A program made the position numbers and the translations under genes. The notes under the pieces were generated by a model that saw only the letters and a program-made list of their open reading frames with translations, was not told where the DNA came from and did no database searches. Shown piece by piece: positions 13,216 through 43,366 of a stretch of DNA of 64,000 bases. Origin of the DNA: an uncultured Bacteroidales bacterium (GTDB lineage: Bacteria; Bacteroidota; Bacteroidia; Bacteroidales; UBA932). Each line of letters begins with the position of its first letter. Position 1 is the first letter of the stretch. The stretch lies in contig CAJONC010000008.1 of NCBI GenBank assembly GCA_905235675.1, forward strand, positions 10,299 to 74,298, given 5' to 3'.

Positions 13216-13289
13216 ATTTCAAAGATACGCAAAAAATTTTGTAGAAAAAGGTAAATCGTATTACGCGTTGTTTAAAGATGCTGTGTTTT

Positions 13290-13297
13290 TATATTTG
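13290..13297 (+). promoter_or_regulatory. -7 promoter box (TATATTTG) for the ECF sigma gene
   Basis: Exact TAnnTTTG, 7 nt before the ATG at 13305. It lies inside the longer track ORF (13278), which argues for the 13305 start. Confidence 0.4.
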
Positions 13298-13304
13298 TCG
13301 ACTA

Positions 13305-13859
13305 ATGACCGAAGATAGAACATATTTCATCGCCGATCGGATAAAGTCCGGGGACGCCACGGCATTCCGTGGCCTGTTCCGTATGCATTACCCCTCGCTG
13401 CTTGCATTTGTGGAAGGTTTTGTCAAAGATAAAGAAGTGGCTGAGGATATTGTGCAGAATGTTTTTATGAAAGTCTGGATTTACCGTTCTTCTCTCGATG
13501 AGACCAAACCTCTCCGAGGATATTTGTTCCTGCTGTGCAGGAGAGAGGTTTGCAACTGGTTCAGGAAAGAAGTGACAATACAGAGATTCATGAGCGGTCT
13601 GGAGCGCGAAGAAATCGACAGAATGGCTGCATCCGAGTCTCAGGATCCCTTGGAAATGGATGAGTTGGAGAAGATAGCCGAAAGAATAATAGATCAGATG
13701 CCGGCCAAACGCAGGGAGGTGTTCGTACTTTCACGGAGGGAAGGCCTAAAAATAGAAGAAATAGCAGAACGCCTGGGCATATCTCCCAGGACTGTTAACA
13801 AGCATATGCAACTGGCTCTCCGCTCATTGCGGATGAACTTGAACAAAGAACAGTTATGA
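13305..13859 (+). CDS. ECF-type RNA polymerase sigma-70 factor
   Basis: Region 2 (DIVQNVFMKVW) and a region 4 HTH (LKIEEIAERLGISPRTVNKHM). The stop overlaps the anti-sigma start (ATGA). The track ORF begins at 13278. Confidence 0.85.
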   Translation: MTEDRTYFIADRIKSGDATAFRGLFRMHYPSLLAFVEGFVKDKEVAEDIVQNVFMKVWIYRSSLDETKPLRGYLFLLCRREVCNWFRKEVTIQRFMSGLEREEIDRMAASESQDPLEMDELEKIAERIIDQMPAKRREVFVLSRREGLKIEEIAERLGISPRTVNKHMQLALRSLRMNLNKEQL

Positions 13860-14868
13860 AAAATAAAACCACACTGGACGCGCAGCTGCTGGAGCGTTAT
13901 TTTCTGGATAAATGCTCCTCGACGGAGGCATATAAAGTCGAAGAATGGCTTGCTGCCTCTGAAAAATCGGAGGATGACGTCGCCTTGCTTGGAGCTTCGA
14001 CAGGATAGACAAAAGCAATGATGCGCTTGCGGACAAAGCGTATGAAAAATGCGCAGAGACTCTCAATCTGGGAAGTGAAAAAAAGAACAGCTTGCCTGGC
14101 GGCCGGCTGTTACCTGTCATAACGATTCTGGCAATGGCCGCCAGTTTCGTGTTAGGGCTGTTTCTTCACAGGGAAAATGCCTCTGAAGACCCCGTCGAGT
14201 TTACGGAAATATATGCGAAGCGCGGAAGTTCCGAGAAAGTGACACTTCCTGACGGATCCACTATCCTGTTAAAATCCGGAAGCAGCCTGATTTATCCTTC
14301 CGAGTTCAAAGGAGATACCCGCAAGGTATTCCTGAGCGGAGAATGTTATGCATCTATCGCGAAGAATCCGGAACGTCCGTTTATTATGTCTACGGGTATG
14401 ATGAATGTCAGGGTAACCGGAACAGAATTCAATATCAAGTCGTATCCGGAGGATTCCGAGGCTGAAGTCGCCCTTGTTGAAGGGAGTGTGCAGTTGGAAG
14501 GCCGGAGCGGATCTTCAACTCATCTTCAGTCAATAACTCTTACCCCTGGAAATGTTGTAAAAGTAGACCGGAAAAACGGTGAGACCCGTATAAGCGAGTT
14601 CAATATCAATAACTACGGATCTGAAGAAGGAAGAGGCGAAGCCTTCGTTTTTCTTGACAGGCGTTTCTGCGATATCGCAAGCGAATTGTCACGCAGGCTT
14701 GATGTGAATATAGTCATTTATGACAAAACACTTGGCGAGAAACGGTTTTATTCTTCTTTCGTCAATGGAGAAAGTCTGGAGGAAATGCTCGCAACTTTCA
14801 ATGCGGACGGAAGTATGGTAATACGTGAAGATGCAGGAACAATCAGAATAACAAAAAGAGGAATATGA
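13856..14868 (+). pseudogene. FecR-family anti-sigma factor, frameshifted
   Basis: The ATG at 13856 gives 50 aa (MKNKTTLDAQLLERYFLDKCSSTEAYKVEEWL...) and ends at TAG 14006-14008. The -1 frame is open from 13978 (RRLAWSFDRIDKSNDALADKAYEK...). It continues through a TM segment (LLPVITILAMAASFVLGLFL) and the FecR and C-terminal domains to 14868. The shift must lie within 13978-14005. Confidence 0.75.
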
Positions 14869-17800
14869 AAAAACTGCTGACATTCATTGCAGCCTTGTCT
14901 GTTTTCATTGCATCAGACGCACAGAATATCAGCTTGCACCGTCAGGGAGCGAGCGTGCGTGAACTCATGCAGGAAATACAACAGAAGTATGGCTATTCAT
15001 TTTCATTGTCTTCCGATGTGGTTGACATTGAAAGAAAAGTGCCTTCCGTTGATATTGAATCAGGGAATATAGATGATGCGTTGCAGGTGATTTTCAAGGG
15101 ACAGGAGGTCTCTTATCGCCTTCAGGGCAAAACCATAGTGGTTACAAAGTCTCAAAAAGTCCGGAAAGAAGGTGATGACAAAGTTAATGGTAACGCCCCC
15201 TCGTTCGGCAATGCCTCCGGAACCAATCCCGGAAAGAACCGGCAGACGACGCAAGACAACGCCTCTTCAAAAGGACAGACGCCGTCTCAAGGAGCCCGTG
15301 TGATTAAAGGAAAAGTTGTTGATGAAACGGGCGAAGCCTTGATAGGTGCCGGTGTTATGTCTGCTGACGGAAAACGCGGAGTGGTCACGGACCTTGACGG
15401 AAACTACAGTTTTCCACTTGTCTCAGGTGACCGGAAACTCGTTTTTTCTTTCGTCGGATACACATCCAGGGAACTTGAGGTCGGAGAAAACCAGGTGATT
15501 GATGTAATCCTCCTTCCGGATAAGGAGAATCGCCTGAATGATGCTGTCGTAATCGGATATGGAACAGTTAAGAAGAGAGATCTTACAGGTTCGGTAGCAA
15601 ATGTAAAAATGTCCGATATTCAGGCCGCTCCCGTGGTCAGTATCGATCAGGCTCTTCAGGGACGCGTTGCCGGAGTAGATATAATGAACACTACCGGCGA
15701 GCCCGGAGCGGCCACTTCCATACGTGTTCGTGGAACGCGTTCGGTAACAGCATCCAATGAACCGCTTATCATCCTTGACGGAGTAATGGATGCAGTTTCG
15801 GATTTCGGAGATATTAACCCGGATGATATCGAGAGCGTCACCATCTTGAAGGATGCTTCGTCTACCGCCATTTACGGCAGCCGCGGGGCAAACGGCGTAA
15901 TAATGGTGACGACAAAAACCGGAAGTAGTACCAGTGCCAAGCCTGTAATCCGTGCCAAAGCGGTCAGCGGCGTATCGTGGATATCCAAACACCTGGACTT
16001 GATGAATGCCGAAGAGTTTACCAGATATCGCAACGATTTCTGGTATGCGAACGGTGCAACGGAAACTCGTCAGATACCGCGTTATGATCCGGACAATTAT
16101 ACCAACGACACGGACTGGATCAGTGCGATTACAAGGGTGGCGCCTTATCAGAATTACAATGTGAGTGCATCCGGAAGGGACAAAGGATACAATTATTTTA
16201 CTTCGCTATCCTTCTGGGATGAGAGAGGTATCGTCCTGGACAGCGGTCAACAGCGTATATCCGGGCGCCTGAACTTCAACAAAGACCTTACGGACTGGTT
16301 TACGCTCGGCCTGAAGGCAAGCACTGTTTACAGAGTCAAGGACCGTAACAAGGCGGTGTTCAGCGGGGGAGGTTACAGCAACGGTGCGATGTACCTTCCA
16401 CCTGTAATCGGCCTTCTGGACAACCAGAATCCGTTCATAGACAACTCTGCTCTCATAAATACTCCTTACGCTTCTATCTTGTATGAAGATTACTTCGACA
16501 AGAACTGGACAAATATGGATGTGGTGGAATTCAGGATCAAACCTGTCAAGGGACTTGTCATCAACAGTCAGAATTCCATCGGCAATACAGAATACCATAT
16601 ATATCATTTCTGGCCCAATGAACTGCCGAAGCGAATTGAGGCCGAAGGTGCCGATGCCTATAAGTTTGAAAGGGAAATCGTGAATATGTCGTCTGAAAAC
16701 ACTGTTACATATAACACGAAACTCGGCAGGTACCATTCCTTGGAAGCAATGGCCGGCTACTCCCTGAATCGTCAGGAATGGTCCAGCACCAGCGTGACGG
16801 CAAAAGGTATAATTTCCGATGCTTTTTCCTGGAACAACCTTAATGCCGTATCTTCAAAAGACGGCTATAACATAGGTTCCAGCTATCAGCGCATACTCAG
16901 GCAGTCTGTTTACGGGCGTTTCAATTATAATTACAGAGGTAAGTATTATGTGACGGCAACCCTGCGCGCGGACGGCTCTTCCAATTTTGCTGAAAACCGC
17001 AAATGGGGTTTCTTTCCTTCGGTAGCGCTAAAGTGGAATATGAAGAAGGAATTCTTCTTCAAGAAAGCACGTTGGATAAACGACTTGAACCTGCGTGCCA
17101 GTGCCGGAAGAACGGGGAATGATGCAATCGCCGCATACCTTTCGCAACAGGCATATACCAGCACTACGTCAAGTTATATTTTTGATGGGAATCAGGGTGC
17201 ATCCTTCTATCCTTCCCGTCTTGCAAGTACGGATCTTACGTGGGAGAAAACAGACCAGTACAATATCGCTCTCGAAGGTGCAGTCTTCAGGGAAAGGCTG
17301 ACTTTCGATCTGGAAGCATACTATTCCCGTACAACGGATCTGCTTCTGCAGGTGTCGACAGTCGCTTCGACAGGTTATACCTCCCGATATACCAATCTGG
17401 GACTGACAACCAACAAGGGAGTCGAACTGACTCTGGAGAGCAAGAATGTGGAGAAAAGGAATTTTGGATGGACCACCTCCTTTACAGTGTCTCACAACAG
17501 TCAGATGGTGAACGATATAGGCCACGAAAGTTATGTTTCCTGCGTGGACAGCCCCGATTCATATATGATGTATGGTTATAAAGCAGGCTATCCATTGAAT
17601 GCACTGTGGGGATTCAAGGCTGCAGGTTGTGTCCACAATGAAGATGAATACAACGAGAACATCGCCAGCAAGGAGTATGCATACCGAAATTCTTTCAGTT
17701 CTGCAAAGGCGGCACTCGGGCATCCCCGATACATTGACAAAGACAGGGACGGAGTCCTTACCCAGTCCGACCTGTTCTATCTTGGTAACGCGGATCCGGA

Positions 17801-18284
17801 TCTGTATGGCGGATTGCAGAATACGTTCCATTTCGGGAATCTTCAACTCTCCGTCTATTTCGCTTATTCGATAGGAGGAAAGATATACAATTATTCCGAA
17901 TTGTATATGGGCGGAGGCTCATACACTAACCAGTATCGCTATGCTCTGGACAGTTGGCATCCTGTACGCAATCCGGAGTCTGACCAACCTATTGCCGGAT
18001 CGTCCAGGTGGCTCATACCCAGCGACAAAATGGTATATGACGCTTCGTATCTAAGACTGAAAGATGTCAGTCTGCAGTATACTTTCAATATGCCTGCATC
18101 GTTCAAGGTTTTCAGGGAACTTACCGTAGGTCTTTCCGGAACCAATCTTAAACTTTGGAGCGAATATCTCGGCTTCGATCCGGACGTGTCCACGGAATCG
18201 GAGGGCTCTACGCTCCGACGTGTAGATAAGAATTCTTATCCTACTTCCAAGCGCATTGTCGCAAATCTTTCCATCAAATTCTGA
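14865..18284 (+). CDS. SusC/RagA-family TonB-dependent transporter with an N-terminal STN signalling domain
   Basis: 1139 aa. Order of parts: signal peptide, STN-like domain (SVRELMQEIQQKYGYSFS...), low-complexity linker, CarboxypepD_reg (VIKGKVVDETGEALIGAGV), plug, barrel. C-terminal ...ANLSIKF. Confidence 0.95.
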   Translation: MKKLLTFIAALSVFIASDAQNISLHRQGASVRELMQEIQQKYGYSFSLSSDVVDIERKVPSVDIESGNIDDALQVIFKGQEVSYRLQGKTIVVTKSQKVRKEGDDKVNGNAPSFGNASGTNPGKNRQTTQDNASSKGQTPSQGARVIKGKVVDETGEALIGAGVMSADGKRGVVTDLDGNYSFPLVSGDRKLVFSFVGYTSRELEVGENQVIDVILLPDKENRLNDAVVIGYGTVKKRDLTGSVANVKMSDIQAAPVVSIDQALQGRVAGVDIMNTTGEPGAATSIRVRGTRSVTASNEPLIILDGVMDAVSDFGDINPDDIESVTILKDASSTAIYGSRGANGVIMVTTKTGSSTSAKPVIRAKAVSGVSWISKHLDLMNAEEFTRYRNDFWYANGATETRQIPRYDPDNYTNDTDWISAITRVAPYQNYNVSASGRDKGYNYFTSLSFWDERGIVLDSGQQRISGRLNFNKDLTDWFTLGLKASTVYRVKDRNKAVFSGGGYSNGAMYLPPVIGLLDNQNPFIDNSALINTPYASILYEDYFDKNWTNMDVVEFRIKPVKGLVINSQNSIGNTEYHIYHFWPNELPKRIEAEGADAYKFEREIVNMSSENTVTYNTKLGRYHSLEAMAGYSLNRQEWSSTSVTAKGIISDAFSWNNLNAVSSKDGYNIGSSYQRILRQSVYGRFNYNYRGKYYVTATLRADGSSNFAENRKWGFFPSVALKWNMKKEFFFKKARWINDLNLRASAGRTGNDAIAAYLSQQAYTSTTSSYIFDGNQGASFYPSRLASTDLTWEKTDQYNIALEGAVFRERLTFDLEAYYSRTTDLLLQVSTVASTGYTSRYTNLGLTTNKGVELTLESKNVEKRNFGWTTSFTVSHNSQMVNDIGHESYVSCVDSPDSYMMYGYKAGYPLNALWGFKAAGCVHNEDEYNENIASKEYAYRNSFSSAKAALGHPRYIDKDRDGVLTQSDLFYLGNADPDLYGGLQNTFHFGNLQLSVYFAYSIGGKIYNYSELYMGGGSYTNQYRYALDSWHPVRNPESDQPIAGSSRWLIPSDKMVYDASYLRLKDVSLQYTFNMPASFKVFRELTVGLSGTNLKLWSEYLGFDPDVSTESEGSTLRRVDKNSYPTSKRIVANLSIKF

Positions 18285-18290
18285 CGCGCT

Positions 18291-20051
18291 ATGAAAAAGA
18301 TATCTGTTTATATATTATCCGCTTTAGTGCTTATGGCATGTTCTCTTGAAGAAGACCATAAGGCATTTACCACAAGGGCGAATTCATATTTGAACAAACA
18401 GCAGTGCCAGGCCTGCGTGGATGCCTGCTACATTCCAATCACTCAGGTTTATGTAACAACTTATGCCTGGGCGGTAGAAGTCCCTACAGACCTATGGTGG
18501 ATCAACACCAGCACCCCGGATCCCAAATGCGAGATTTCTCCTTCCAAGCCGGGTGTGGGAACGACTGTTTGGCAGTATTGCTATCAGGGAATTATGCGTT
18601 GCAACGAATTTATTGAATGCATTGCGGATTCCCCAATCGACGAAGCCGACAAACTTCCTATGATAGCGGAAGCACGTGTTATGAGAGCCTTGTATTATTA
18701 TCATTTGACCAATTTTTTCAACGGCGTGCCTTTTTACACCTATATGGTTGCAGATCAGTCTGTTCAGGAAAAGATACGCCGTCTTCCCAGGACGGATGCA
18801 AATCTCATTCGAAGCTCTCTTTATGAAGACTTGAAAGAAAATGCCCTTCCCTATCTGACAAAAGCGCGCACGAGCGAGATTGAAGGCAACAGGGCCGGAT
18901 ATTCCCTCGCCTTGATGCTGATGGCCAAGTTCGCCATGTGGTATAAGAACTGGGAAGATGCCGAATGGGCTCTTTCTGAACTGGAGAGCATATATGGTGA
19001 TTTCTCCGAGGCACGCTATCCTCTTGACGACACCCGCTGGTGCAAGAAAAACACTCCCGAGAGCATATTTGAGATCCAGCACGAGTGGAGCGAAGCCGGA
19101 ATTCAGTTCCAGGGGAAGATGAGCCGGACCTATTATCCGTCCAGTATTGCGAAGATATGGGATAATACTGATGTCACCGAAGGCTTGAACGGGGCGTGGA
19201 TAGACGGTACGTATGACGGGTATCTCGATGATGTATATATGCCTCAGTGGGGCCGCGGCATTCCGTCTGTCTCCAGTATGAGAGCGACCTGGCATATGGG
19301 ATGTTTCAGGGCAAAAACCGGAACTGATCAGACGGAAGATACCACTACGGCCCAGTATTGCCCGGGTGACCGTATCTTCGATCCTCTTCCTTTGACTTTC
19401 GGCGAGTTCAACAAATATTATAACCGTTGGAATGCAAGGCTGGACACCACCGCCCTGCGTTTGGGGCATACTGCCGACGGTCGCAAGATAGACCGCCGTA
19501 TCCGTTACGTCCTCGGGCTTGGCAGTATGAATCCTTCAGATGAGAATTACGGCGAGACATTCAAGGATGTGCGTACTCAGGGACGGCCTTGTGCCGGAGA
19601 GAAATTCTGGGTGCCGGATATGATGTCCAACTTCGACTCAAACAATTACAAGATTCTCCGATATGCCGATGCCGTACTTATGATGGCGGAGGTCAAGTGT
19701 ATGCAGGGGGATTATGATGCCGCACTGGAATATATGAACAAGGTGCGCGCACGTGCTGCTGTAGATCCTTTCAGCGGTTACTCCGACGAGGCTTCGGTTA
19801 TGAAACTCATTCGTGATGAAAGAGCTCGTGAACTGGCTGGAGAGTGCCATCGTAAATTCGATCTGGTGCGCTGGGGAATATGGTACACCGAGACACTCAA
19901 GTATGCCCCTTCCGGCACAAAGGAGTACATCCAGGCAAATATCCAGCCTTGCCACGAATATTATCCTATTCCCGATACCGAATGCGCACTTACCGCCGAT
20001 GCGGACGGGAATCCTGTCCTCACAAACCCCGCCTATGCCGGAATAGAATAA
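18291..20051 (+). CDS. SusD/RagB-family lipoprotein
   Basis: 586 aa. Lipoprotein signal (LVLMACS) and TPR-like SusD features (RALYYYHLTNFF, RYADAVLMMAE, ERARELAGE..RKFDLVRWG). Confidence 0.9.
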   Translation: MKKISVYILSALVLMACSLEEDHKAFTTRANSYLNKQQCQACVDACYIPITQVYVTTYAWAVEVPTDLWWINTSTPDPKCEISPSKPGVGTTVWQYCYQGIMRCNEFIECIADSPIDEADKLPMIAEARVMRALYYYHLTNFFNGVPFYTYMVADQSVQEKIRRLPRTDANLIRSSLYEDLKENALPYLTKARTSEIEGNRAGYSLALMLMAKFAMWYKNWEDAEWALSELESIYGDFSEARYPLDDTRWCKKNTPESIFEIQHEWSEAGIQFQGKMSRTYYPSSIAKIWDNTDVTEGLNGAWIDGTYDGYLDDVYMPQWGRGIPSVSSMRATWHMGCFRAKTGTDQTEDTTTAQYCPGDRIFDPLPLTFGEFNKYYNRWNARLDTTALRLGHTADGRKIDRRIRYVLGLGSMNPSDENYGETFKDVRTQGRPCAGEKFWVPDMMSNFDSNNYKILRYADAVLMMAEVKCMQGDYDAALEYMNKVRARAAVDPFSGYSDEASVMKLIRDERARELAGECHRKFDLVRWGIWYTETLKYAPSGTKEYIQANIQPCHEYYPIPDTECALTADADGNPVLTNPAYAGIE

Positions 20052-20058
20052 CAAGATT

Positions 20059-20442
20059 ATGAAACGAATCTTTCAATTATCATTTATTGTCCTGTCGATG
20101 CTCGCAGCAGCGTCGTGCAGCAAGGTATATGAAGAAAAATACGTATCCATTTATCGCACCGATGCCGAAGGCAACGAAGTGCCCAGGATGTTCACATGGT
20201 ACGACATTGCTTCTTCAACAGGTACACTTCCCATAGTGATATACTATTCAGGATCCTGGACGGTCGACTTTGCCGAGGAACCGGAATGGGCCTATCTCGA
20301 CAGAAAGTCCGGCAGCGGCGTGTCGTATATCCATGTCGGGTATCTGCAGAATAATACAGGCAACAACAGAAGCCTGCTCCTCAAACTCTCCTGCGACAAT
20401 GGGGAGACATTGGATATTACAATTAATCAGGCGACGGTATGA
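20059..20442 (+). CDS. small surface lipoprotein, BACON-like domain
   Basis: 127 aa. Lipoprotein signal (LAAASC). A single beta-rich domain ends ...NNRSLLLKLSCDNGETLDITINQ. Confidence 0.4.
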   Translation: MKRIFQLSFIVLSMLAAASCSKVYEEKYVSIYRTDAEGNEVPRMFTWYDIASSTGTLPIVIYYSGSWTVDFAEEPEWAYLDRKSGSGVSYIHVGYLQNNTGNNRSLLLKLSCDNGETLDITINQATV

Positions 20443-21812: not shown

Positions 21813-21815
21813 GAT

Positions 21816-23948: not shown

Positions 23949-23964
23949 CTAATAACATAATTAT

Positions 23965-24105
23965 ATGAAAAAGAATTATTTACCCCCTTTGTCAGTTATT
24001 CTGCCAATTGAACCGCAGGCGATGATTTGCGTCAGCGATATAGAGCAGTTAATGAGTATTGAAAGTTTATCATATACCGACGAAATGTTCGACGGGTGGA
24101 TTTAA
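23965..24105 (+). CDS. unannotated 46-aa small ORF (paralog of 26065-26199)
   Basis: MKKNYLPPLSVILPIEPQAMICVSDIEQLMSIESLSYTDEMFDGWI. It falls below the 60-aa cutoff of the track. 12 of the first 24 residues are identical, without gaps, to the second small ORF. It occupies the same position 14 nt upstream of a paralogous lipoprotein gene. Confidence 0.45.
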   Translation: MKKNYLPPLSVILPIEPQAMICVSDIEQLMSIESLSYTDEMFDGWI

Positions 24106-24119
24106 TGGAGGTCAGAATA

Positions 24120-26060: not shown

Positions 26061-26064
26061 GAGT

Positions 26065-26199
26065 ATGAAAAAAGAATATATGATCCCTCAGGCGGAAGCC
26101 TTGCAATTTGATCCGCAGATGGTTATTTGCGGAAGTCCGGAATCGGATAGTGTCGATAGTATGACCAAAGATACGGTAAACAGTATAATTTGGTATTAA
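26065..26199 (+). CDS. unannotated 44-aa small ORF (paralog of 23965-24105)
   Basis: MKKEYMIPQAEALQFDPQMVICGSPESDSVDSMTKDTVNSIIWY. Shares the pattern MKK.Y..P....L...PQ..IC.S and a Trp near the C-terminus with the first small ORF. It lies 13 nt upstream of the second FISUMP lipoprotein. Confidence 0.45.
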   Translation: MKKEYMIPQAEALQFDPQMVICGSPESDSVDSMTKDTVNSIIWY

Positions 26200-30634: not shown

Positions 30635-30635
30635 T

Positions 30636-32240: not shown

Positions 32241-32243
32241 TTT

Positions 32244-34785: not shown

Positions 34786-34786
34786 T

Positions 34787-35650: not shown

Positions 35651-35667
35651 TCACTAATTTGAAATCA

Positions 35668-38600
35668 ATGAGAATCAAAGCATTCCCTGCAGCCATTTTC
35701 ACCGCTGCCTTCTTATTGATTGTTTCTTGTGCAGGAAGACAGACTTCCGTGTCGGACAATCTGCGACAGTCTTTCGCAAATCCTCCCCAAAGTGCCCGGC
35801 CTATGGTATGGTGGCACTGGATGAACGGCAATATTTCTCCGGATGGATTAAGGAAAGACATTATGTGGATGCATCGCATCGGCATCGGCGGATTTCATAT
35901 CTTCGATGCCGGTTTGGATACTCCACAAATAACAGAAAGTCGCCTCGATTTTATGAGCCCCGAGTGGAAAGAAACTTTGAACGGTGCGGTTGCACTTGCC
36001 GACTCGCTCGGGATGGAGGTTGCGGTGGCAGCCTCTCCGGGATGGAGTTGCACCGGAGGCCCATGGGTGAGCGAAGAAGACGCTATGAAGAAACTGGTCT
36101 GGAGAAATATGCAGGTAGATGGAGGCAAGCATTATCACGGTCCGCTTCCCGAGCCATATACTATGAGCAGCAGATTCCAGAATGTCCCTCTGCCTTATGA
36201 ACACAATCATCATCAGGATGGCCCGATTCCGGAGTGGTATTACAAGGACATCGCTGTCTATGCTGTCAGATTGCCGTCATCTTTTGCATCTATGGAGGAA
36301 CTTGGGGCAAAGGTCAGCGACAATGGAGGCAATGGGCCATTCTACTGGATACAATATGAATTCCCGCAGCAGCAGAGTTTCAGGGCTGTATCTGTCGTGA
36401 ACGCAAAGGCGAGAAGCGGAGGGCACGCAATCCCGGCTAAATGCAAGGATTCTCTTCAGATCAGTGACGACGGACTCCATTTCCATACTTTGTGTGGCAT
36501 TACAGTCGGGGCGGCCCAGCAGCAGACAGAATGCATTCCCTATGCCGAGGCTCGCTTTTGGAGGCTCAAACGACCGAATTCCGGATATGCTGCAATCAAT
36601 CCGGAAGATTATATCCTGCATAAACATACACCCATAAATCACTATGAAGAGAAAGCCGGTTTCGCCTATACCTGCGACCTTATGAATTATCCGACACCTC
36701 CGGAGGCGGAAGCCTGTGAGGTGATCGATATTACCGCCAATTACAAGAATGGAATACTTGACTGGGACGCCCCTGAAGGCAGATGGATGATTTATCGTTT
36801 CGGTTGTTCGCTTACCGGCAAGAAGAACCATCCGGCATCTGCCGAAGCAACCGGTCTTGAGGTGGACAAACTGGATAAGACTGCCTTTGCCCGTTATCTG
36901 CACCACTACCTCGATATGTATAATGATGCGACCGGGGGAAGACTTGGTAAAACAGGTATACGATATCTGATGATTGACAGTTACGAATCCGGAGCCCAGA
37001 ACTGGACGTCCTCGCTTCCGGAAGAATTCAAGTTGAGAAGGGGGTATGATATGATGCCCTGGTTGCCTGCTGTCGCTGGTGTCGTCATCGGAGATACGGA
37101 GCAGACAGAACGATTCCTTTGGGATTTCCGTCGCACCATCGGAGAACTCTTTGCCGAGAACTACGATAATGCTACGGAGATAGTTCGGCAGGACTACGGT
37201 ATGGATGGCATCTTCATTGAGTCACACGAACACGGAAGAAACTGCCCGGCGGACGGAATGTCAATCAAGAAAAGTGCATCTTACCCGATGTCGGCAATGT
37301 GGATGGAGGGGAGTGGCGCTGTGAACCGTGTCGCTGAAGGTAAGGCGGATATACGGGAGTCTGCATCAGTAGCCCACATTTACGGGCAGAACCTTGTTGC
37401 AGCGGAATCTCTGACGATTTCCGGCCTTGGAGGAAAAGCATTTAGTTATTATCCCGGCAATTTGAAGCACGCGGCAGATTTGGAGATGGGTGCCGGGGTA
37501 AACCGTTTCGTCATACACGAAAGTGCACATCAGCCTTCGGACGATAAAGTGCCCGGAATAGGCCTCGGACATTACGGACAGTGGTTCAACAGGCACGAAA
37601 CGTGGGCTGAACTCGCCGGACCGTGGATTGACTACCTGAGCCGCAGTTGTGCACTTCTCCAGCAGGGCAGGTATGTCGCTGATTATCTCTATTACTATGG
37701 CGAGGATACCAATGTCACTGCACAGTTCAGCCAATCCGAACTCAAGGCCCCTTTCGGCTATGGGTACGATTTCATCGGGCCGGAGGCTCTGCTCAAAGAG
37801 TTGAAAGTCCGGCAGGGAAAACTGGTAACTTCTACCGGTATGGAGTATTCTACTCTATTTGTGGGAGGTGATGGCTTGAGAATGTCGAAAGAGGTGAGAG
37901 AACGTATCAACTCATTCAAAAAATCCGGGATAAGGGTATTGGAGGGGACAGAAGTGCATTATGTGAAGAAAACTATCGAACCCGACCTGATTCTTTCTGA
38001 CGCTGGTGATATGCAGTTTGTGCACAGGACTGCCCCGGATGCAGAGATATATTGGATATGCAATTCTATGGACTGCCTACGCACTCAGGAGGCATCTTTC
38101 CGGATCAGCGGACGAAAACCGCGCCTCTGGCATCCGGAAACGGGAACAATCAGCGACCTGCCTTATCGTTTTGCTGATGGCAGGACATATATTTCTTTGA
38201 AGTTCGCTGGGGATGAAGCGTATTTCGTTGTTTTCGAAGAACAGGTTAAGGACTCTTCCTTTGATGTTGCGGAAGAAGTCTTGATAGACAGTACTCCTGT
38301 CTGCGGTCCGTGGGAAGTGTCTTTCAACCTGAAGACGGGAGCCCCTGCGCATATCCTTATGCCTGAACTGTCATCATGGACCGAGTCTTCCAGCCCTGAA
38401 ATCAAATATTATTCCGGAACGGCCAAATATAGGAAGACTTTCAACTTCCGTCCCGACGGGGGCCGTTATGTTCTGAATCTTGGGAAGGTAGGCAGTATCG
38501 CTTGCGTGAATATGAATGGGCAAGACTTGGGCCAGTGTTGGAAATCTCCTTATGAGATGGATATCACCGGGGCTCTTCGCGCCGGGGAAAATACAATGGA

Positions 38601-38757
38601 GATATCAGTAACAAATCTATGGGTGAATCGTTTGATAGGAGATGCCGGCAGGAAAAACCGGAAGACATATTATTCGTATGATTTCTATAAAGCAGACGAC
38701 CCTCTGCTCCCTTCGGGCTTGATGGGGCCGGTCAGCATTGATAAATATGACCTTCAT
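35668..38757 (+). other. domain: GH106-like (alpha-L-rhamnosidase-like) glycoside hydrolase region (approximate bounds)
   Basis: PPQSARPMVWWHWMNGNISPDGLRKDIMWMHRIGIGGFHIFD at the N-terminus and NLWVNRLIGD...LPSGLMGPV at the end, as in the Bacteroidales GH106-like family. Recognised from memory. Confidence 0.5.
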
Positions 38758-40707
38758 CCCCGGTTCTCTGATTTTGATAATCCGGATTTTGCCAAAATGA
38801 TTTTTGACAATCCCGTATTTGCCAGTCTGAATGCAACTCCGTACGATGAATTGGGGCGCCCCGATTCTGATACTCCGGCTCCAACAGGCTACAAGCCGGT
38901 ATATATCAGCCATTATGGACGTCACGGGGCGCGGTCTGGCAGCCCCGGGAGCAAGGACCTCCAAAGTTTTATAAATCTTGAAAAAGCATTGACCAATGCA
39001 TCAGTTGCCGGGATTCTCACCCCGGAAGGGAAGGAATTGCTTGTGGAGGTTCGAAAAGTTATTGCGGCTACGGACAATATGGAAGGGCGTCTGACCGAGC
39101 GAGGAAAGCGGGAACATTCGGGCATTGCAGAAAGGATGTATCGGCGTTTTACTCCGGTTTTCAAAGATGGGAGCAGAAAGGTTTATGCCCTTGGAAGCGA
39201 ATATCCTCGCTGCCTGATCAGTATGGCTTCTTTTACTGGACAGTTGAACAAGATGGATCCGTCTCTTGAGATAAAGTTGAATTCCGGCCCGGAATATCAG
39301 AAAATCATACACAATACGGCCACTCCGGAAGTGAGGGAGAAGCGCATCCGTGCGATTGACTCCTTGCTTGCGCTTGTCCGTCCCGAGACTAAAGAACTGA
39401 TGGACAGATTGTTTACGGACCCCGATGCGGCAAGCGATTTTGTGCCGGATCCGGTAGAAATGTCACGCTGGATCTTCCGTGCCGGAAGAATTTCAGGTGG
39501 CTTTGATATAAAAGAGAATATTTTCCGGCATCTGCCATTCAAGACTCTGTATGCCTGGGCAGATTTCTATAATTCCACAATTTATATCGGACACGGAAAT
39601 TCCTTTGAATTCGGGGATGACCGTATGTCGCAGACCAGACTGTTGGTAAACGACATCGTAAACCGGGCCGATGATGCACTCAATACGGGCAATTTGGCGG
39701 CGGATCTGCGCTTCGGGCACGATTTTACTCTGCTTGCTTTATGTGCAAGGATGGGGATGGCTGGTGTTAGTGAAAGGTACGATTATGAAGGATCAAGGAA
39801 GCACTTCATTTGCAGTAAACTGATTCCTTTTGCCGCTAATCTGCAACTGGTTTTCTATAAAAAGAAAGATGCTCCTGTGCTGGTAAAATGCTTGTTGAAC
39901 GAAAGAGAAATGACCATCACCGGGCTGGAGCCTGTGAATGGGGTCTATTACAGATGGGAAGACTTGCGCGCCACTCTTGTTCCATCTGATGATTTCTGTC
40001 TGGAAGCACACCGTGGAATCAGCAACCGGTATCCCGAGAACACTATCCTTGCTTTCAAAGAAGCAGCATCGGTTCACAGATATGTGGGGATGGAAACCGA
40101 TGTGCAGATGACTTCCGACGGGGTGCTGGTTATAATGCACGATGATACGGTAGAACGCACTACTGACGGAATCGGAATGGTGTCGGACTATACCTGGAAG
40201 GAACTCTCGCGCCTCCATATTGACGGAGGATATGGCTGGGACGAAAGATTTAAAGGCAAACTTCATATCCCATTGTTTACCGATTATCTCAAGATCTGCC
40301 GTGAAGGCGGTCTTGTTCCATATGTGGAACTGAAATTGCTGACCGACGAGGGTATCGCCAAGACCATAGAGACGCTTCATTCAGAGGGATTCTCGGATGA
40401 TGATTATGTCTTGACTTCATTCAACAGACATTATGTTGATTATGCCGGAACTCTCTGTTCTGCAAAAAGGGAGTTTATGAAGGGCGGACGTTTCACGCAC
40501 GAAGATCTCGCATCTATGGTTGGCTCCGGGCTTGTAGTACGACCGGATTGTCGCAAGATAAATCAGGCTCTGGTGGACGAGTGCCGTGCGCTGGGTCTTG
40601 AACTGGAAGCATATGGCCTCCCTGTTGGGGATGCGTCTTTGCTTGCGAACCTGAAGGCGTGGGGAGTGAAAGGCGTAACCTGCAATGATTGGCTGAATTT
40701 ATTATGA
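35668..40707 (+). CDS. 1,679-aa tri-domain lipoprotein: GH106-like glycosidase plus histidine acid phosphatase plus glycerophosphodiester phosphodiesterase
   Basis: Lipobox LLIVSCAG. See the three domain sub-features below. It is one uninterrupted ORF. ATG at 35668 (track TTG at 35659). Confidence 0.85.
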   Translation: MRIKAFPAAIFTAAFLLIVSCAGRQTSVSDNLRQSFANPPQSARPMVWWHWMNGNISPDGLRKDIMWMHRIGIGGFHIFDAGLDTPQITESRLDFMSPEWKETLNGAVALADSLGMEVAVAASPGWSCTGGPWVSEEDAMKKLVWRNMQVDGGKHYHGPLPEPYTMSSRFQNVPLPYEHNHHQDGPIPEWYYKDIAVYAVRLPSSFASMEELGAKVSDNGGNGPFYWIQYEFPQQQSFRAVSVVNAKARSGGHAIPAKCKDSLQISDDGLHFHTLCGITVGAAQQQTECIPYAEARFWRLKRPNSGYAAINPEDYILHKHTPINHYEEKAGFAYTCDLMNYPTPPEAEACEVIDITANYKNGILDWDAPEGRWMIYRFGCSLTGKKNHPASAEATGLEVDKLDKTAFARYLHHYLDMYNDATGGRLGKTGIRYLMIDSYESGAQNWTSSLPEEFKLRRGYDMMPWLPAVAGVVIGDTEQTERFLWDFRRTIGELFAENYDNATEIVRQDYGMDGIFIESHEHGRNCPADGMSIKKSASYPMSAMWMEGSGAVNRVAEGKADIRESASVAHIYGQNLVAAESLTISGLGGKAFSYYPGNLKHAADLEMGAGVNRFVIHESAHQPSDDKVPGIGLGHYGQWFNRHETWAELAGPWIDYLSRSCALLQQGRYVADYLYYYGEDTNVTAQFSQSELKAPFGYGYDFIGPEALLKELKVRQGKLVTSTGMEYSTLFVGGDGLRMSKEVRERINSFKKSGIRVLEGTEVHYVKKTIEPDLILSDAGDMQFVHRTAPDAEIYWICNSMDCLRTQEASFRISGRKPRLWHPETGTISDLPYRFADGRTYISLKFAGDEAYFVVFEEQVKDSSFDVAEEVLIDSTPVCGPWEVSFNLKTGAPAHILMPELSSWTESSSPEIKYYSGTAKYRKTFNFRPDGGRYVLNLGKVGSIACVNMNGQDLGQCWKSPYEMDITGALRAGENTMEISVTNLWVNRLIGDAGRKNRKTYYSYDFYKADDPLLPSGLMGPVSIDKYDLHPRFSDFDNPDFAKMIFDNPVFASLNATPYDELGRPDSDTPAPTGYKPVYISHYGRHGARSGSPGSKDLQSFINLEKALTNASVAGILTPEGKELLVEVRKVIAATDNMEGRLTERGKREHSGIAERMYRRFTPVFKDGSRKVYALGSEYPRCLISMASFTGQLNKMDPSLEIKLNSGPEYQKIIHNTATPEVREKRIRAIDSLLALVRPETKELMDRLFTDPDAASDFVPDPVEMSRWIFRAGRISGGFDIKENIFRHLPFKTLYAWADFYNSTIYIGHGNSFEFGDDRMSQTRLLVNDIVNRADDALNTGNLAADLRFGHDFTLLALCARMGMAGVSERYDYEGSRKHFICSKLIPFAANLQLVFYKKKDAPVLVKCLLNEREMTITGLEPVNGVYYRWEDLRATLVPSDDFCLEAHRGISNRYPENTILAFKEAASVHRYVGMETDVQMTSDGVLVIMHDDTVERTTDGIGMVSDYTWKELSRLHIDGGYGWDERFKGKLHIPLFTDYLKICREGGLVPYVELKLLTDEGIAKTIETLHSEGFSDDDYVLTSFNRHYVDYAGTLCSAKREFMKGGRFTHEDLASMVGSGLVVRPDCRKINQALVDECRALGLELEAYGLPVGDASLLANLKAWGVKGVTCNDWLNLL
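38758..39990 (+). other. domain: histidine acid phosphatase (branch 2) (approximate bounds)
   Basis: YISHYGRHGARSGSP (RHGxRx motif, about 38920) and LRFGHDFTLLAL (HD motif, about 39715). Confidence 0.7.
39991..40704 (+). other. domain: glycerophosphodiester phosphodiesterase (GDPD) (approximate bounds)
   Basis: LEAHRGISNRYPENTILAFKEA...GMETDVQMTSDGVLVIMHDDTVERTTDG matches the canonical GDPD HRG / E.D / HD pattern. Confidence 0.8.
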
Positions 40708-42206
40708 AAAGAATTATAACTTTTTTTGTTGCACTGGCAGTGTGTGTGTCAGTCTTTGCAAGGGGTAATGACAAGGTCCTGTTCGGAGGAGAGATGCACA
40801 ATTCCAATTCCACGACACCTGAATCGCTGGAATCATCATTCCTCCTCGCCCGTGTACTTGGATTCAATGCCGTTCTTGCAGCGGTGCCCTGGGACATTGT
40901 GGAGCCGGAAGAGGGAACGTTCAACTTTGGGATAGTGGACAATATCATCGCTTCCGCAAAAAAGAATAATCTGCTGGTAGGAATCCTGTGGTTCGGCAGT
41001 TATAAGAACGGAGAATCATCCTATGCGCCTCTGTGGGTGAAACGCGATACACGGAAATACTTCCGATGCGCAGACTCCGAAGGAAAAGCAAGTACAACAA
41101 TTTCTCCGTTCTGCACCGCTGCACAGAAAGCCGATGCTGTCGCATTTTCACGTCTGATGGCATATATCCGCGACAATGATCAAGAAAGGCGCATCTGTGT
41201 CGTGCAAGTTGAAAACGAGGTAGGCGCCTTTATGGAGAGGGATATGTGTCCTGCTGCCATGAAGGCATGGGAAAGGTGCAAGTGGTCGAAAAGTTCGGAT
41301 ATGCTTGCTCCGCAGCATTTTATGGCGGAGGCTTTTGCCGGTTATGTGGATGCTGTTGCGGAGGCCGGGAAAAAAGAGTACGACATTCCGATGTTTGCAA
41401 ACGCATGGTTGAAAGTTGCAGACGCTCCCTATGGATCATATCCTAACGGGGGACCTCGAATTGCGGTGCTGGATACTTGGAAAGCAAGGGTGAAACATCT
41501 TGACTGGCTTTCTCCTGACATCTATGACCCGGGATTTGCAGAACTTTGCGACCCTTATTCTCAGGGACAGCCTCTTTTTATCCCTGAAACCCGGCGCGAA
41601 ATTGGCCGTTACTATTATGCTTTCGGAGAAAAAAGGGCCAAAGGAGTGTTTTCCTTTGGTTTTGAAGAGTCATATGACGACCCTTATTACTCCGTTGAAT
41701 GCAGGACATTTTCGGAAATACTTCCTTTTTTGGATGCAGATCTTCCTTCCCGAGGATTTTTCCGAGAACCCGGGGTCGTGGCTCCGGGAGATTCTCTGAA
41801 TCTGTCTCTCGGTGGATATACCTTCTGCATCCACTATATCGAAGGGGAAAAGAATGCCCATGGAATAATCATACAGACTGACAAAGATGAATTTGTTGTG
41901 GCTGGAGTGGGCGCATGGATCGACTTTTCCTCTATTCCCGGGGAGGAGTGCAAGATTGCCGTTTGCGAAGAATTGACTGAAGGGAGAGTAAGCCAGATAC
42001 TGAATGGGGACGAAACCGGACATCACAATATGCTGTACCTTCGTGGCCGTTTGCATCTGGACAACTACACCGCTCCGGACGGAGTGGTGAATCCGGCTCC
42101 GGATTACGGGCTTTCGTACCAGAGACGTTTCTGGTCCTCGGCGCATGAGCGTTTCAAGACATCAGGGATATATCGTGTAAAACTCTATAGCTATCCTTCA
42201 AGATGA
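40704..42206 (+). CDS. secreted GH35/GH42-like glycoside hydrolase (DUF5597-type beta-galactosidase-like)
   Basis: Signal peptide MKRIITFFVALAVCVSVFA. TIM-barrel-like VPWDIVEPEEGTFNF and VQVENEVG (catalytic NE) motifs. The ATG overlaps the stop of the preceding gene (ATGA). Confidence 0.6.
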   Translation: MKRIITFFVALAVCVSVFARGNDKVLFGGEMHNSNSTTPESLESSFLLARVLGFNAVLAAVPWDIVEPEEGTFNFGIVDNIIASAKKNNLLVGILWFGSYKNGESSYAPLWVKRDTRKYFRCADSEGKASTTISPFCTAAQKADAVAFSRLMAYIRDNDQERRICVVQVENEVGAFMERDMCPAAMKAWERCKWSKSSDMLAPQHFMAEAFAGYVDAVAEAGKKEYDIPMFANAWLKVADAPYGSYPNGGPRIAVLDTWKARVKHLDWLSPDIYDPGFAELCDPYSQGQPLFIPETRREIGRYYYAFGEKRAKGVFSFGFEESYDDPYYSVECRTFSEILPFLDADLPSRGFFREPGVVAPGDSLNLSLGGYTFCIHYIEGEKNAHGIIIQTDKDEFVVAGVGAWIDFSSIPGEECKIAVCEELTEGRVSQILNGDETGHHNMLYLRGRLHLDNYTAPDGVVNPAPDYGLSYQRRFWSSAHERFKTSGIYRVKLYSYPSR

Positions 42207-43366
42207 AAATAGTTAAGCTAAGCCTGTTTGTGAAGGTCCTCATTGCGATTATTCTTGGTTCCTTGCTGGGTCTGGTCGCTCCGGATGTGCTTGTGCGCAT
42301 TTTCAAGACATTCAATGTGCTGTTTGCGCAGATACTCCGTTTCATAGTGCCTTTGCTGGTGCTGGGGCTGGTTACTCCTGCCATCTACAATCTCGGCAAA
42401 GGGGCCGGAAAGATGCTGCTTATAGTAGTGGCAGTGGCCTATGTGTCTACCGTTTTTGCGGGACTGTTCGCATATGGATGCTCCGGCGCGTTGTTCCAGA
42501 GTATAATTCCTATAGGGGATTTGTCGTCAGGCACTGTCGATACCAAGTCTTTCGCTCCGTATATCGATTTGAAGATTGCCCCGTTATGTGATATCCTGAC
42601 CGCTCTCTGTCTTTCCTTTATGACGGGAATATGCTGCATATACATAAAAGGACAGGCCCTGCGTGGATTCTTTGACGAATTTGGGGAGGTGGTCAAAATG
42701 ACTATCGAAAAAGCCATTATTCCACTGATGCCGGTTTATATCTTTACAATGATGTGTGAGATGAGTGCAGCGGGAAAACTTGCTGTTGTTATGGGGGCTG
42801 GAGTAAAGGTGATTCTTACAGGTGTAACCCTCTCGATACTTTATTTGATAATACAGTATGCGGTTGCAGGAGCAATTGCCGGCAAGAATCCATTCAAGTG
42901 CCTTTGGAATATGCTCCCGGCTTATTTAACAGGCTTCTCTATTTGCTCTTCATCAGCAGTAATCCCTGTTACCCAAAGATGTACTCTCAAGAACGGCGTT
43001 TCAGAGGAAGTTGCAAATTTCGTCATACCGCTATGCTCGAACGTGCACATGTGCGGCTCTGTTATCAAATTGGCTACCACTTCAGTGGCAGTTGCACTGA
43101 TGATGGGTACGCCCATAAGTTTCCCTGTTTTCCTGAATTTCGTACTGATGCTGGCGGTTGCGACCGTAGCGTCTCCAGGCGTGATGAGCGGTGTGCTTAT
43201 GACCTCTGTCGGTCTGCTGGAATCGATGCTCGGATTTTCCCCTGAAATGACTGCCCTCTTGATGGCGATTTACCTGGCTCTTGATGGATACGGGCCCGCC
43301 TGCAATGTTACCGGCGACGGAGCCATCGCCCTTGGCGTAGACCGATTTTTCAAGAAAATGGATTAA
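42203..43366 (+). CDS. dicarboxylate/amino acid:cation symporter (SDF/DAACS family)
   Basis: 387 aa, polytopic, with SDF-like reentrant-loop motifs (SSSAVIPV, PGVMSGV, NVTGDGA). ATGA overlap with the upstream gene. Confidence 0.75.
   Translation: MKIVKLSLFVKVLIAIILGSLLGLVAPDVLVRIFKTFNVLFAQILRFIVPLLVLGLVTPAIYNLGKGAGKMLLIVVAVAYVSTVFAGLFAYGCSGALFQSIIPIGDLSSGTVDTKSFAPYIDLKIAPLCDILTALCLSFMTGICCIYIKGQALRGFFDEFGEVVKMTIEKAIIPLMPVYIFTMMCEMSAAGKLAVVMGAGVKVILTGVTLSILYLIIQYAVAGAIAGKNPFKCLWNMLPAYLTGFSICSSSAVIPVTQRCTLKNGVSEEVANFVIPLCSNVHMCGSVIKLATTSVAVALMMGTPISFPVFLNFVLMLAVATVASPGVMSGVLMTSVGLLESMLGFSPEMTALLMAIYLALDGYGPACNVTGDGAIALGVDRFFKKMD

Follow-up and report, generated by a model that had tools for sequence, protein, structure and literature searches.

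The stretch of DNA considered here (the window, 64,000 nucleotides) derives from an uncultured Bacteroidales bacterium of the UBA932 lineage (GenBank assembly GCA_905235675.1, contig CAJONC010000008.1, positions 10,299 to 74,298 of the forward strand), whose habitat is the ruminant gut. Between positions 13278 and 43366 it carries a locus that combines a SusC/SusD transport system and glycosidases with six phosphoester-cleaving domains, among them three of the endonuclease/exonuclease/phosphatase (EEP) superfamily, one histidine acid phosphatase and one glycerophosphodiester phosphodiesterase (GDPD). According to the listing of open reading frames (ORFs) and to Pfam and NCBIfam scans, 18 co-oriented genes on the + strand fill this interval with hardly any intergenic space. 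They encode, in order, an extracytoplasmic function (ECF) sigma factor, a FecR-type anti-sigma factor, a SusC-type transporter with an STN domain, a SusD-family protein, a BACON-like protein, a Big_2 protein, lipoproteins of 710, 654 and 659 amino acids (aa), a first EEP enzyme (EEP1), a 522-aa lipoprotein, a 534-aa secreted protein, a BNR_2-EEP fusion (EEP2), a third EEP enzyme (EEP3), an SGNH esterase, a 1679-aa fusion enzyme, an enzyme resembling glycoside hydrolase (GH) families 35 and 42, and an SDF-family symporter. Every element that a preliminary description of this DNA had listed for the interval was found in place. Owing to the adjacency of SusC-family (TIGR04056, 781 bits against a cut-off of 368) and SusD-family genes (SusD_RagB, 97 bits) and to the co-localised carbohydrate-active enzymes (GH106, 1.4e-268; the GH35/GH42-like enzyme), the interval can be regarded as one real nutrient-uptake locus of the polysaccharide utilisation locus (PUL) type.

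The 1679-aa lipoprotein (35668-40707) fuses, as had been proposed in the preliminary description, a GH106 glycosidase, a histidine acid phosphatase and a GDPD; the modules follow one another in this order. The alpha-L-rhamnosidase-type GH106 module, which includes a GH2_N2-like beta-sandwich, spans 35668-38750 (Glyco_hydro_106, 893.8 bits) and is full-length. Its matches in the PDB are 6Q2F, the alpha-L-rhamnosidase RHA-P of Novosphingobium (2.7e-208), and 5MQM, the enzyme BT0986 of B. thetaiotaomicron (2.7e-121). The phosphatase module (38854-39975) belongs to branch 2 and is MINPP-like, with matches to the structures 7R5Y (9e-36) and 4FDT (1.5e-26) and to the MINPP of Bacteroides thetaiotaomicron (~1e-27). 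It carries the motifs RHGARSG at aa 1085 (from 38920), in which the final proline of RHGxRxP is replaced by glycine, and GHD at aa 1350 (from 39715). Among the Pfam families named beforehand for checking, PF03372 and PF03009 score above their cut-offs, whereas PF00328, the family of this phosphatase, remains sub-threshold (20.6 against 23.6 bits); despite this score the domain is judged unambiguously real from its matches to solved structures. The GDPD module (40003-40707; PF03009, 1.4e-26, 94.5 bits) retains the motifs EAHRG, PENT, ETD and HDD, and it matches 2PZ0 (1.3e-20) and GlpQ of Bacillus subtilis, 5T91 (2e-16). No acidic residues follow the lipidated cysteine of the fusion enzyme in its signal-peptide region, which suggests a periplasmic location.

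Proteins that join all three domains are rare: 1.84 billion representative proteins yielded only two clusters in which the phosphatase and the GDPD are contiguous with GH106, and one further protein, of 659 aa, that consists of phosphatase and GDPD without GH106. The two-domain fusion of GH106 and phosphatase is commoner and occurs in both orders, with GH106 first in the window and in the related locus L005, and with the phosphatase first in L007 and L013. The two orders are best read as separate fusion events, and since the activities have been joined independently in both arrangements, phosphatase and GH106 would be expected to share one substrate. In a scan of genome collections, the nearest GH106 relatives came from ruminant Bacteroidales metagenome-assembled genomes (MAGs) of buffalo, yak, goat, sheep and deer (61-67% identical), and the nearest GDPD relatives from Alistipes, Cryptobacteroides and Rikenellaceae MAGs. 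The literature searched describes no GH106-phosphatase-GDPD enzyme, and it held nothing of relevance on GH106-phosphatase systems.

The other phosphoester-cleaving domains are the three EEPs. All of them exceed the Pfam gathering cut-off for the superfamily (PF03372, 24.5 bits) and show, on direct reading, intact catalytic motifs N, QE, GDxN, DH and SDH, in agreement with what had been stated before. EEP1 (28211-29062) is a divergent phosphoesterase (Exo_endo_phos, 49.4 bits) whose sole PDB match is a weak one to CCR4. Its gene starts 18 nucleotides after the preceding stop codon and, unlike those of EEP2 and EEP3, encodes no signal peptide; the enzyme is possibly cytoplasmic, which would be unusual for a PUL enzyme. 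EEP2 (32244-33869) joins a beta-propeller-like BNR_2 domain (33.1 bits) to a C-terminal EEP domain (35.6 bits), an arrangement kept in the related loci L072, L073, L075 and L076, and its best PDB matches are 3MPR and 4C1R (BT3783; 3.5e-12). EEP3 (33859-34785; 44.1 bits) is a lipoprotein of the BT3783-like subfamily. It matches the mannosyl-6-phosphatase 4C1R at 1.9e-15 over ~250 aa, with the common motif W-x-S-[DE]-T-P-x-V-P-S, and gives weak matches to ExoIII models. The statement in the preliminary description that EEP enzymes of Bacteroides mannan PULs act as sugar-6-phosphatases was both correct and relevant; EEP2 and EEP3 match 4C1R best.

The SGNH esterase and the GH35-like enzyme listed earlier were likewise recovered by Pfam. 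The former is an SGNH/GDSL lipoprotein (34787-35650; Lipase_GDSL_lke and Lipase_GDSL_2) with GDS and GGTND blocks and a PDB match to 4M8K at 1.9e-13. The latter (40704-42206) is a GH35/GH42-like glycosidase with a DUF5597 domain, matching Glyco_hydro_35 and Glyco_hydro_42 and scoring 347 bits with the GH35_fam model (cut-off 500). It is an accessory gene, present in the window and in L076 and absent from L001, where a 74-aa ORF (L001 15061-15285) stands instead.

The gene set and its order recur on the metagenomic contigs L001, L075 and L076 and, in rearranged and partial form, in L002, at protein identities of 43-95%. The relative in L001 is 91% identical to the window; most of its proteins are 84-95% identical, and the two paralogous lipoproteins with FISUMP-like domains (described below) 43-58%. 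Identities range over 51-78% in L075 and 50-81% in L076. L002 represents a rearranged minimal form in which sigma factor, anti-sigma factor, SusC and SusD are 78-80% identical to those of the window, while the fusion enzyme shows 52-67% identity across its three modules and is transcribed divergently. Moreover, the locus forms a low-GC island, with a GC content of 0.46-0.51 inside against 0.59-0.60 just upstream and 0.54-0.57 downstream, and the GC steps at ~13.0 kb and ~43.4 kb coincide with its edges. Because gene set and order are conserved and the edges match the GC steps, the locus is more than a chance juxtaposition; the sharp bounds of the low-GC island additionally suggest horizontal acquisition. 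Insertions precede the fusion gene in L075, namely a DUF2442/DUF4160 pair (14146-14654) and a WbsX-family gene (PF14307, 15582-16766). The WbsX family is also found alongside the phosphatase-GH106 gene of L007.

Beyond these close relatives, the locus can be placed in a wider, uncharacterised class whose core comprises SusC (47-80% identical to that of the window), SusD, one or two DUF5689 proteins, an EEP and a BNR_2-EEP fusion. The glycosidases of the class vary (GH2, GH3, GH13, GH20, GH35, GH97 and GH106), and Metallophos enzymes are present or not. From its domain composition, the class can be described as a constant core for phosphoester handling and transport with interchangeable glycosidases. 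Searches with the 534-aa protein revealed the members L072 (two DUF5689 proteins, BNR_2-EEP, EEP and SGNH), L073 (Metallophos, SusCD, BACON, two DUF5689 proteins, BNR_2-EEP, GH2 and GH3) and L074 (ERZ28665848 scaffold_2; EEP, SusCD, BACON, DUF5689, GH20, EEP, Metallophos and GH3, with a patatin gene nearby). L074 encodes an 848-aa BACON protein (P0155) related to DUF5689, and a neighbouring cluster of closely similar BACON proteins (P0159/P0188), with 718 sequences, contains sequences from cultured Alistipes communis (WP_302570572.1). By this similarity, a member of the class is present in a cultured species of the human gut.

The GDPD module follows the same modular pattern. Its clade, found in Alistipes, Cryptobacteroides and Rikenellaceae MAGs and in Bacteroides sp. 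CAG:709, is 48-58% identical to the GDPD of the window and 67-95% identical in the close GH106-fusion relatives L001-L004. Members are fused to GH13 of the exo-alpha-glucosidase type in L035, L050, L060 and L061, to GH97 and GH13 in L038, and to a domain of the sulfatase/alkaline-phosphatase superfamily in L043, L052 and L056. The SusC partners of the fused-GDPD loci are 48-57% identical to that of the window, and these loci further carry SusD, two BACON-DUF5689 proteins, an EEP3-like enzyme and an SDF symporter 68-70% identical to the one described here. In Cryptobacteroides MAGs (L043 1673-3985 and L052 8408-10711), the superfamily domain fused to GDPD has weak Phosphodiest matches, and this partner, instead of being a sulfatase, could act as another phosphodiesterase. 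Stand-alone GDPD also occurs, often near extra histidine phosphatases and GH2. For instance, an Alistipes MAG (L040 9786-13727) has a stand-alone GDPD followed by three tandem histidine phosphatases, together with a DUF6259 protein and GH2, outside any SusCD context.

A link to rhamnose, which the preliminary description had missed, emerges from two directions. The GH106 module has a characterised alpha-L-rhamnosidase as its nearest match, and the phosphatase-GH106 gene of L007 stands directly in front of a set of genes for rhamnose catabolism, which encode an FGGY-family kinase, the isomerase RhaA, the transporter RhaT and a class II aldolase. Upstream of this gene lie GH3, a WbsX-family protein and an S1-P1 nuclease, followed by SusC and SusD genes whose products are 72% and 57% identical to those of the window. 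The L007 neighbourhood ties the system to rhamnose, in line with the closeness of GH106 to 6Q2F.

Regulation and transport are represented by the first four genes and the last one. The ECF sigma factor (13278-13859; Sigma70_r2, Sigma70_r4_2 2.3e-17, Sigma70_ECF 8e-14) is 80% identical to that of L002, and the set for ECF trans-envelope signalling comprises this sigma factor, an STN domain and an anti-sigma factor that is present yet split by a frameshift. The FecR-type anti-sigma gene (13856-14868; FecR, FecR_C) is interrupted near 13996-14006. In a tblastn comparison, its intact 337-aa homologue from L002 matches two frames, 13865-13996 and 13996-14865. The first frame holds the initial ~47 codons, corresponding to the sigma-binding part, and stops at ~14006; the transmembrane and periplasmic part is in the other frame. 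The frameshift may be an assembly error or a genuine lesion that makes a pseudogene; if real, it would uncouple sigma from anti-sigma. The SusC-type TonB-dependent transporter (14865-18284) carries an N-terminal STN domain (31.1 bits, cut-off 28.4) together with CarbopepD_reg_2 and Plug domains, and is 47-80% identical to the SusC proteins of related loci. Its SusD-family partner (18291-20051; SusD_RagB, SusD-like_3) is a surface lipoprotein in which the lipoprotein signal is followed by C-S-L-E-E. At the other end of the locus, the inner-membrane symporter (42203-43366; SDF, 2.7e-73) is 68-70% identical to symporters beside GDPD-glycosidase fusions in six other loci. The amino-acid/dicarboxylate symporter of the preliminary description was thus recovered as a member of the SDF family. 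Assignment of a substrate failed, as the best NCBIfam model (SstT) reached 62 bits against a cut-off of 308 and the relatives are generic glutamate transporters.

Of the proteins counted as accessory, eight in all, seven are lipoproteins, and most of those without a known function carry lipoprotein signal peptides. A small 127-aa BACON-like lipoprotein (20059-20442; BACON 3.2e-05, slightly under the cut-off) follows SusD here and in L002, L007, L052 and L076. The next lipoprotein (20439-21812) has five Big_2 stretches (3.4e-72), keeps its position in L002, L007 and L075, and is probably a surface glycan-binding protein, to judge from its domains. In SusD and the Big_2 protein, acidic residues directly follow the lipidated cysteine, and export to the surface is expected for this reason. 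Four large lipoproteins (710, 654, 659 and 522 aa) have no family assignment, and NCBIfam provided no names for the unknown lipoproteins of the locus. The 710-aa protein (21816-23948; weak Chlam_PMP and DUF4957 matches) combines a fimbrial-like N-terminal domain with a right-handed beta-helix in its AlphaFold2 model (predicted local distance difference test score, pLDDT, 77). Foldseek matched this model weakly, at TM-scores of 0.2-0.3, to the polysaccharide lyase family 6 enzyme chondroitinase B, GH87 and phage capsule depolymerases, and its N-terminus to Bacteroides fimbrial proteins; the protein is tentatively considered a candidate surface depolymerase or binding protein. The 654-aa (24096-26060) and 659-aa (26213-28192) lipoproteins are paralogues, 49% identical, each with a FISUMP-like C-terminal domain. 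The former has a weak TIGR02145 match and the motif YQWGRKDP, and its homologue in L005 neighbours EEP and Metallophos genes. A PDB sequence search with the 659-aa paralogue gave nothing significant. The 522-aa lipoprotein (29066-30634) contains GLUG-like repeats (NAGGIVG and NAGGIAG, read directly), has a homologue in L076 with a faint Glug match, and has its N-terminal domain in common with the 710-aa protein.

The 534-aa protein (30636-32240) has a type I signal peptide and is assigned to the DUF5689 family. Its own Pfam score is 16.8 bits (cut-off 28.6), most of its homologues carry PF18942, and it shares 27-28% identity with the BACON-DUF5689 proteins encoded in the GDPD loci. Its gene is not adjacent to SusC, the partner position being held by SusD. 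The AlphaFold2 model (pLDDT 84) matched only carbohydrate-binding module (CBM) and jelly-roll folds at low TM-scores in Foldseek; the model fits a binding role and is not diagnostic of the ligand, and the protein is a candidate binder of a polyanionic substrate.

The island is flanked by housekeeping genes (LepA, PGK) and by another PUL, of starch-like type. This second PUL (54783-63939), with a major facilitator superfamily transporter, SusC, SusD and an 891-aa protein carrying a CBM26 starch-binding module, is probably an alpha-glucan system. Immediately upstream, in high-GC DNA on the opposite strand, a 574-aa protein (11491-13215, -) abuts the island and has two esterase-type alpha/beta-hydrolase matches (BD-FAE / Abhydrolase_3 / Peptidase_S9). 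Just outside the downstream edge are a 1040-aa TMEM260-like putative O-mannosyltransferase (43444-46566, +) and a homologue of Agp-like glucose-1-phosphatases and inositol phosphatases (47502-48968, -). The preliminary description had associated this stand-alone histidine phosphatase with the locus. It was rejected as a member because it is encoded beyond the edge of the GC island and on the opposite strand, and because synteny is lost in L001, where unrelated genes sit in place of both downstream genes. Rfam and tRNA scans of the window gave zero matches.

We infer from this composition that the locus is a PUL for an anionic, glycosylated polymer linked or decorated by phosphodiesters, most likely a polymer of the Gram-positive cell envelope, and give this reading a probability of about one half. 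The constituents of this polymer would include alpha-L-rhamnose, glycerol phosphate and acyl groups in ester linkage, and it could be a polymer resembling teichoic acid, a wall polysaccharide that is rich in rhamnose and bears glycerol phosphate, or a phospho-exopolysaccharide. As 'Rosetta-stone' evidence, the repeated, independent fusions of phosphoesterases and glycosidases indicate that the phosphoesters and glycosidic bonds cleaved belong to the same substrate. Furthermore, the fusion of GDPD to alpha-glucosidase-type or rhamnosidase modules fits teichoic-type polymers, rhamnans and phospho-exopolysaccharides. Teichoic-type polymers are variably glycosylated, with a constant polyol-phosphate or sugar-phosphate backbone and varying glycosyl decoration. 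Their use would require a constant phosphodiester core and variable glycosidases, and a variably glycosylated polymer of this type is favoured for that reason. The general notion of a system that differs from the usual glycan PULs and serves a phosphodiester-linked or phosphorylated glycopolymer, put forward in the preliminary description, is thereby strengthened by the conserved unit, the fusions and the locus class.

A degradation route can be proposed in which the order of the steps and the cellular locations are our inference from the domain content. The polymer would be captured at the surface by the Big_2 and BACON-like proteins, the two FISUMP-like paralogues and the GLUG-repeat protein, perhaps with a contribution from the secreted DUF5689-family protein. 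Its fragmentation would fall to the beta-helix lipoprotein or to an EEP at the surface, and SusC/SusD would import the oligomers while the STN domain signals to the anti-sigma/sigma pair. In the periplasm, the SGNH esterase would remove acyl groups (O-acetyl or D-alanyl), the GDPD and the EEPs would cut phosphodiesters, and the histidine phosphatase and the BT3783-like EEPs would remove phosphomonoesters. GH106 and the GH35-like enzyme would release monosaccharides such as rhamnose and galactose-type sugars, so that the fusion enzyme would carry out de-decoration and glycosidic steps on a single polypeptide. Finally, the SDF symporter would take up a small product.

Several points weigh against this reading. 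No enzyme of the locus is diagnostic for teichoic acid, and the favoured substrate and the enzyme activities are read from sequence similarity. The nearest relatives of the GDPD module are small diesterases of the UgpQ type (2PZ0) with a wide range of glycerophosphodiester substrates, and the MINPP-like phosphatase points to inositol phosphates. Moreover, the vocabulary of transporter, DUF5689 protein and EEP is that of the DNA-utilisation locus ddbABCDEF / BT3560-3563, and L007 carries the S1-P1 nuclease. The models of the beta-helix and DUF5689 proteins matched generic folds only, this assembly shows a frameshift in the anti-sigma gene, EEP1 lacks a signal peptide, and the cargo of the SDF symporter is not assignable.

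The points that concern DNA lead to an alternative that the preliminary description had mentioned and that is more serious than it was made to appear, because the DUF5689 protein, a link which that description had overlooked, ties the locus to ddbABCDEF. Under this explanation the locus serves the utilisation of extracellular nucleic acid, with EEPs as DNases or RNases, a DNA-binding DUF5689 protein, import of oligonucleotides by SusCD, release of phosphate and nucleosides by the phosphatases, and glycosidases that are accessory or unrelated. In ddbABCDEF, the DUF5689 protein DdbD has been proposed to bind DNA as a partner of the transporter, the EEP-family lipoproteins are proven DNases, and variants of the locus carry BACON (10.1101/2025.03.18.642099; 10.1101/2021.06.04.447082). 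The 534-aa protein belongs to this DUF5689 family, the locus with the S1-P1 nuclease has a SusC 72% identical to that of the window, and EEP3 shows the weak ExoIII-model matches noted above. However, GH106, GH35, GH13, GH97, GH20, GH2, GH3, SGNH and GDPD are unneeded for DNA and yet are conserved and fused in the class, and the nearest relative of EEP2 and EEP3 is a sugar phosphatase, BT3783, and not a nuclease. The ddb loci as described consist of transporter, DUF5689 protein and nucleases, with no mention of a SusD partner or of glycosidases, whereas the present locus has a bona fide SusC/SusD pair. Additionally, no nucleic-acid-binding fold was among the top matches of the DUF5689-family model. 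Utilisation of nucleic acid is therefore considered unlikely.

A second alternative concerns the head groups of phospho(inositol)lipids or glycophospholipids, the candidates being plant glycosyl-inositol-phosphoceramides (GIPCs), phosphatidylinositol-type lipids and glycerophosphodiesters. GDPD and EEP would then act like phospholipases C or D, the phosphatase on inositol phosphate and the SGNH enzyme as a lipase. Such use would resemble the PusCD systems of Flavobacterium johnsoniae, in which SusCD-like pairs with ECF sigma/anti-sigma factors, phosphatidylinositol-specific phospholipase C, and calcineurin-like and GDPD-like phosphatases import phosphoinositol compounds; the Pus authors also noted pusCD-like pairs beside glpQ in gut Bacteroidota. 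The phosphatase module is closest to MINPP-type enzymes, and class members carry Metallophos enzymes, one of them with the patatin gene nearby. On the other hand, from general knowledge of GIPC head groups, fusions with rhamnosidase or alpha-glucosidase are not expected, and no alpha-glucuronidase was detected in the window locus or in the related loci scanned. The EEPs resemble the sugar phosphatase rather than sphingomyelinase-type enzymes, the many surface proteins of glycan-binding type suggest a polymer, and the link to rhamnose catabolism in L007 speaks against lipid head groups. We regard this account, too, as improbable.

An ordinary PUL for a rhamnose-containing plant or algal glycan, such as pectic rhamnogalacturonan (RG-I/RG-II-type) or arabinogalactan side chains, with the phosphoesterases employed in general phosphate scavenging, is improbable. 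GH106, GH35-like and SGNH enzymes are all seen in pectin-active systems, BT0986 (5MQM) being an RG-II GH106 enzyme, and the ruminant gut would be a suitable habitat. Nevertheless, Pfam scans of the locus found no polysaccharide lyase, GH28, GH105, GH43 or GH78. Six phosphoesterase domains occur in one operon-like cluster, two of them covalently fused to GH106, and the recurrence of the fusion in two domain orders is hard to explain by scavenging. Fungal or yeast phosphomannan, which had been listed among the possible substrates, or host phosphorylated N-glycans, as in the mannan PULs of B. thetaiotaomicron, are very improbable, and phosphomannan was rejected: the greatest similarity of EEP2 and EEP3 is to BT3783, which acts as a mannosyl-6-phosphatase in a mannan PUL, but the mannan-active families GH76, GH92, GH38, GH99, GH125 and GH130 were not detected by Pfam in the locus or its relatives, and the rhamnosidase and the GDPD would be left unexplained.

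Returning to the Gram-positive envelope polymer, a more far-reaching and tentative proposal can be made, which in its entirety we hold to be somewhat doubtful. The locus and its relatives would be the first PUL-type systems dedicated to teichoic-acid-like or phosphodiester-decorated wall glycopolymers of Gram-positive bacteria. The core of SusC/SusD, DUF5689 and EEP would handle the polyol-phosphate or sugar-phosphate backbone, and swappable fusions (GH106 with phosphatase and GDPD, GDPD with GH13, or GH97 with GDPD and GH13) would match the decoration of the prey. DUF5689 would be a general binder of polyanionic backbones shared by the uptake of DNA and of teichoic acid. In the literature searched, no Bacteroidota PUL or uptake locus for a teichoic-type polymer or rhamnan was found.

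A large part of the biomass of Gram-positive bacteria, and much of the phosphorus in it, resides in teichoic acids and related wall polymers that contain phosphate. To our knowledge, the recycling of these polymers by gut and rumen communities is essentially unknown. If the proposal is true, it would describe a new nutrient niche, namely cross-feeding on, or scavenging of, Gram-positive necromass, and would explain widespread unannotated Bacteroidales genes such as those for DUF5689 proteins, BNR_2-EEP fusions and FISUMP lipoproteins. It would also offer a source of enzymes that strip immunologically active polymers (lipoteichoic acid, rhamnose-glycerol-phosphate antigens) and would illustrate how modular evolution proceeds through fusions of glycosidases and phosphoesterases. 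Should the substrate be DNA or a phosphoinositol glycolipid instead, the ddb and Pus systems, both discovered very recently, would still be extended to a glycosidase-containing form. The hypothesis is directly testable because the class is widespread and one member occurs in a cultured human-gut species, Alistipes communis, which could serve as a tractable model organism for the class.

The locus is not categorically new, as precedents exist in the PUL paradigm, the EEP sugar phosphatase of the mannan PUL, the ddb loci and the Pus systems. The ddbABCDEF / BT3560-3563 locus of B. thetaiotaomicron has been shown experimentally to serve DNA utilisation (10.1101/2025.03.18.642099; 10.1101/2021.06.04.447082). 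Compared by their descriptions, the two loci share a TonB-dependent transporter, a DUF5689-family protein, several EEP lipoproteins, sometimes BACON, and a PUL-like logic applied to a phosphodiester polymer. The present locus differs in its true SusC/SusD pair, its ECF sigma/anti-sigma factors, its GH106, GH35-like, SGNH, GDPD and histidine phosphatase enzymes, and its EEPs, which are closest to a sugar phosphatase. The SusCD-type PusCD transporters of F. johnsoniae import organophosphorus compounds, and PusD has a tryptophan-stacking site for inositol phosphate (bioRxiv 10.64898/2026.09.03.749221). In architecture, the likeness lies in the SusCD-like pair, the ECF sigma/anti-sigma factors and the clustered phosphodiesterases and phosphatases, including a GDPD-like domain. 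However, Pus loci are small, linked to phosphate starvation, devoted to small head groups and devoid of glycosidases. The glycosidases of the locus described here, its numerous binding proteins at the surface and the fusion of phosphatase and glycosidase imply a polymeric glycan substrate.

The yeast alpha-mannan PUL (BT3783, 4C1R) contains an EEP of the same subfamily as EEP2 and EEP3, which there takes phosphate off a phosphorylated glycan. Here, in contrast, mannan-active glycosidase families are lacking, and the phosphoesterases (three EEPs, GDPD and histidine phosphatase) dominate instead of being accessory. GlpQ-type GDPDs are exo-teichoicases in Bacillus and Staphylococcus (PMC7086022). 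The GDPD module has the same catalytic motifs and matches GlpQ of B. subtilis (5T91), but here it belongs to a Gram-negative PUL and is joined to a glycosidase and a phosphatase, its closest structure is the UgpQ-like 2PZ0, and activity on teichoic acid is a prediction. Lastly, the GH106 alpha-L-rhamnosidases 6Q2F and BT0986 (5MQM) share with the fusion enzyme a full-length catalytic module, to which a phosphatase and a GDPD have here been added at the C-terminal side.

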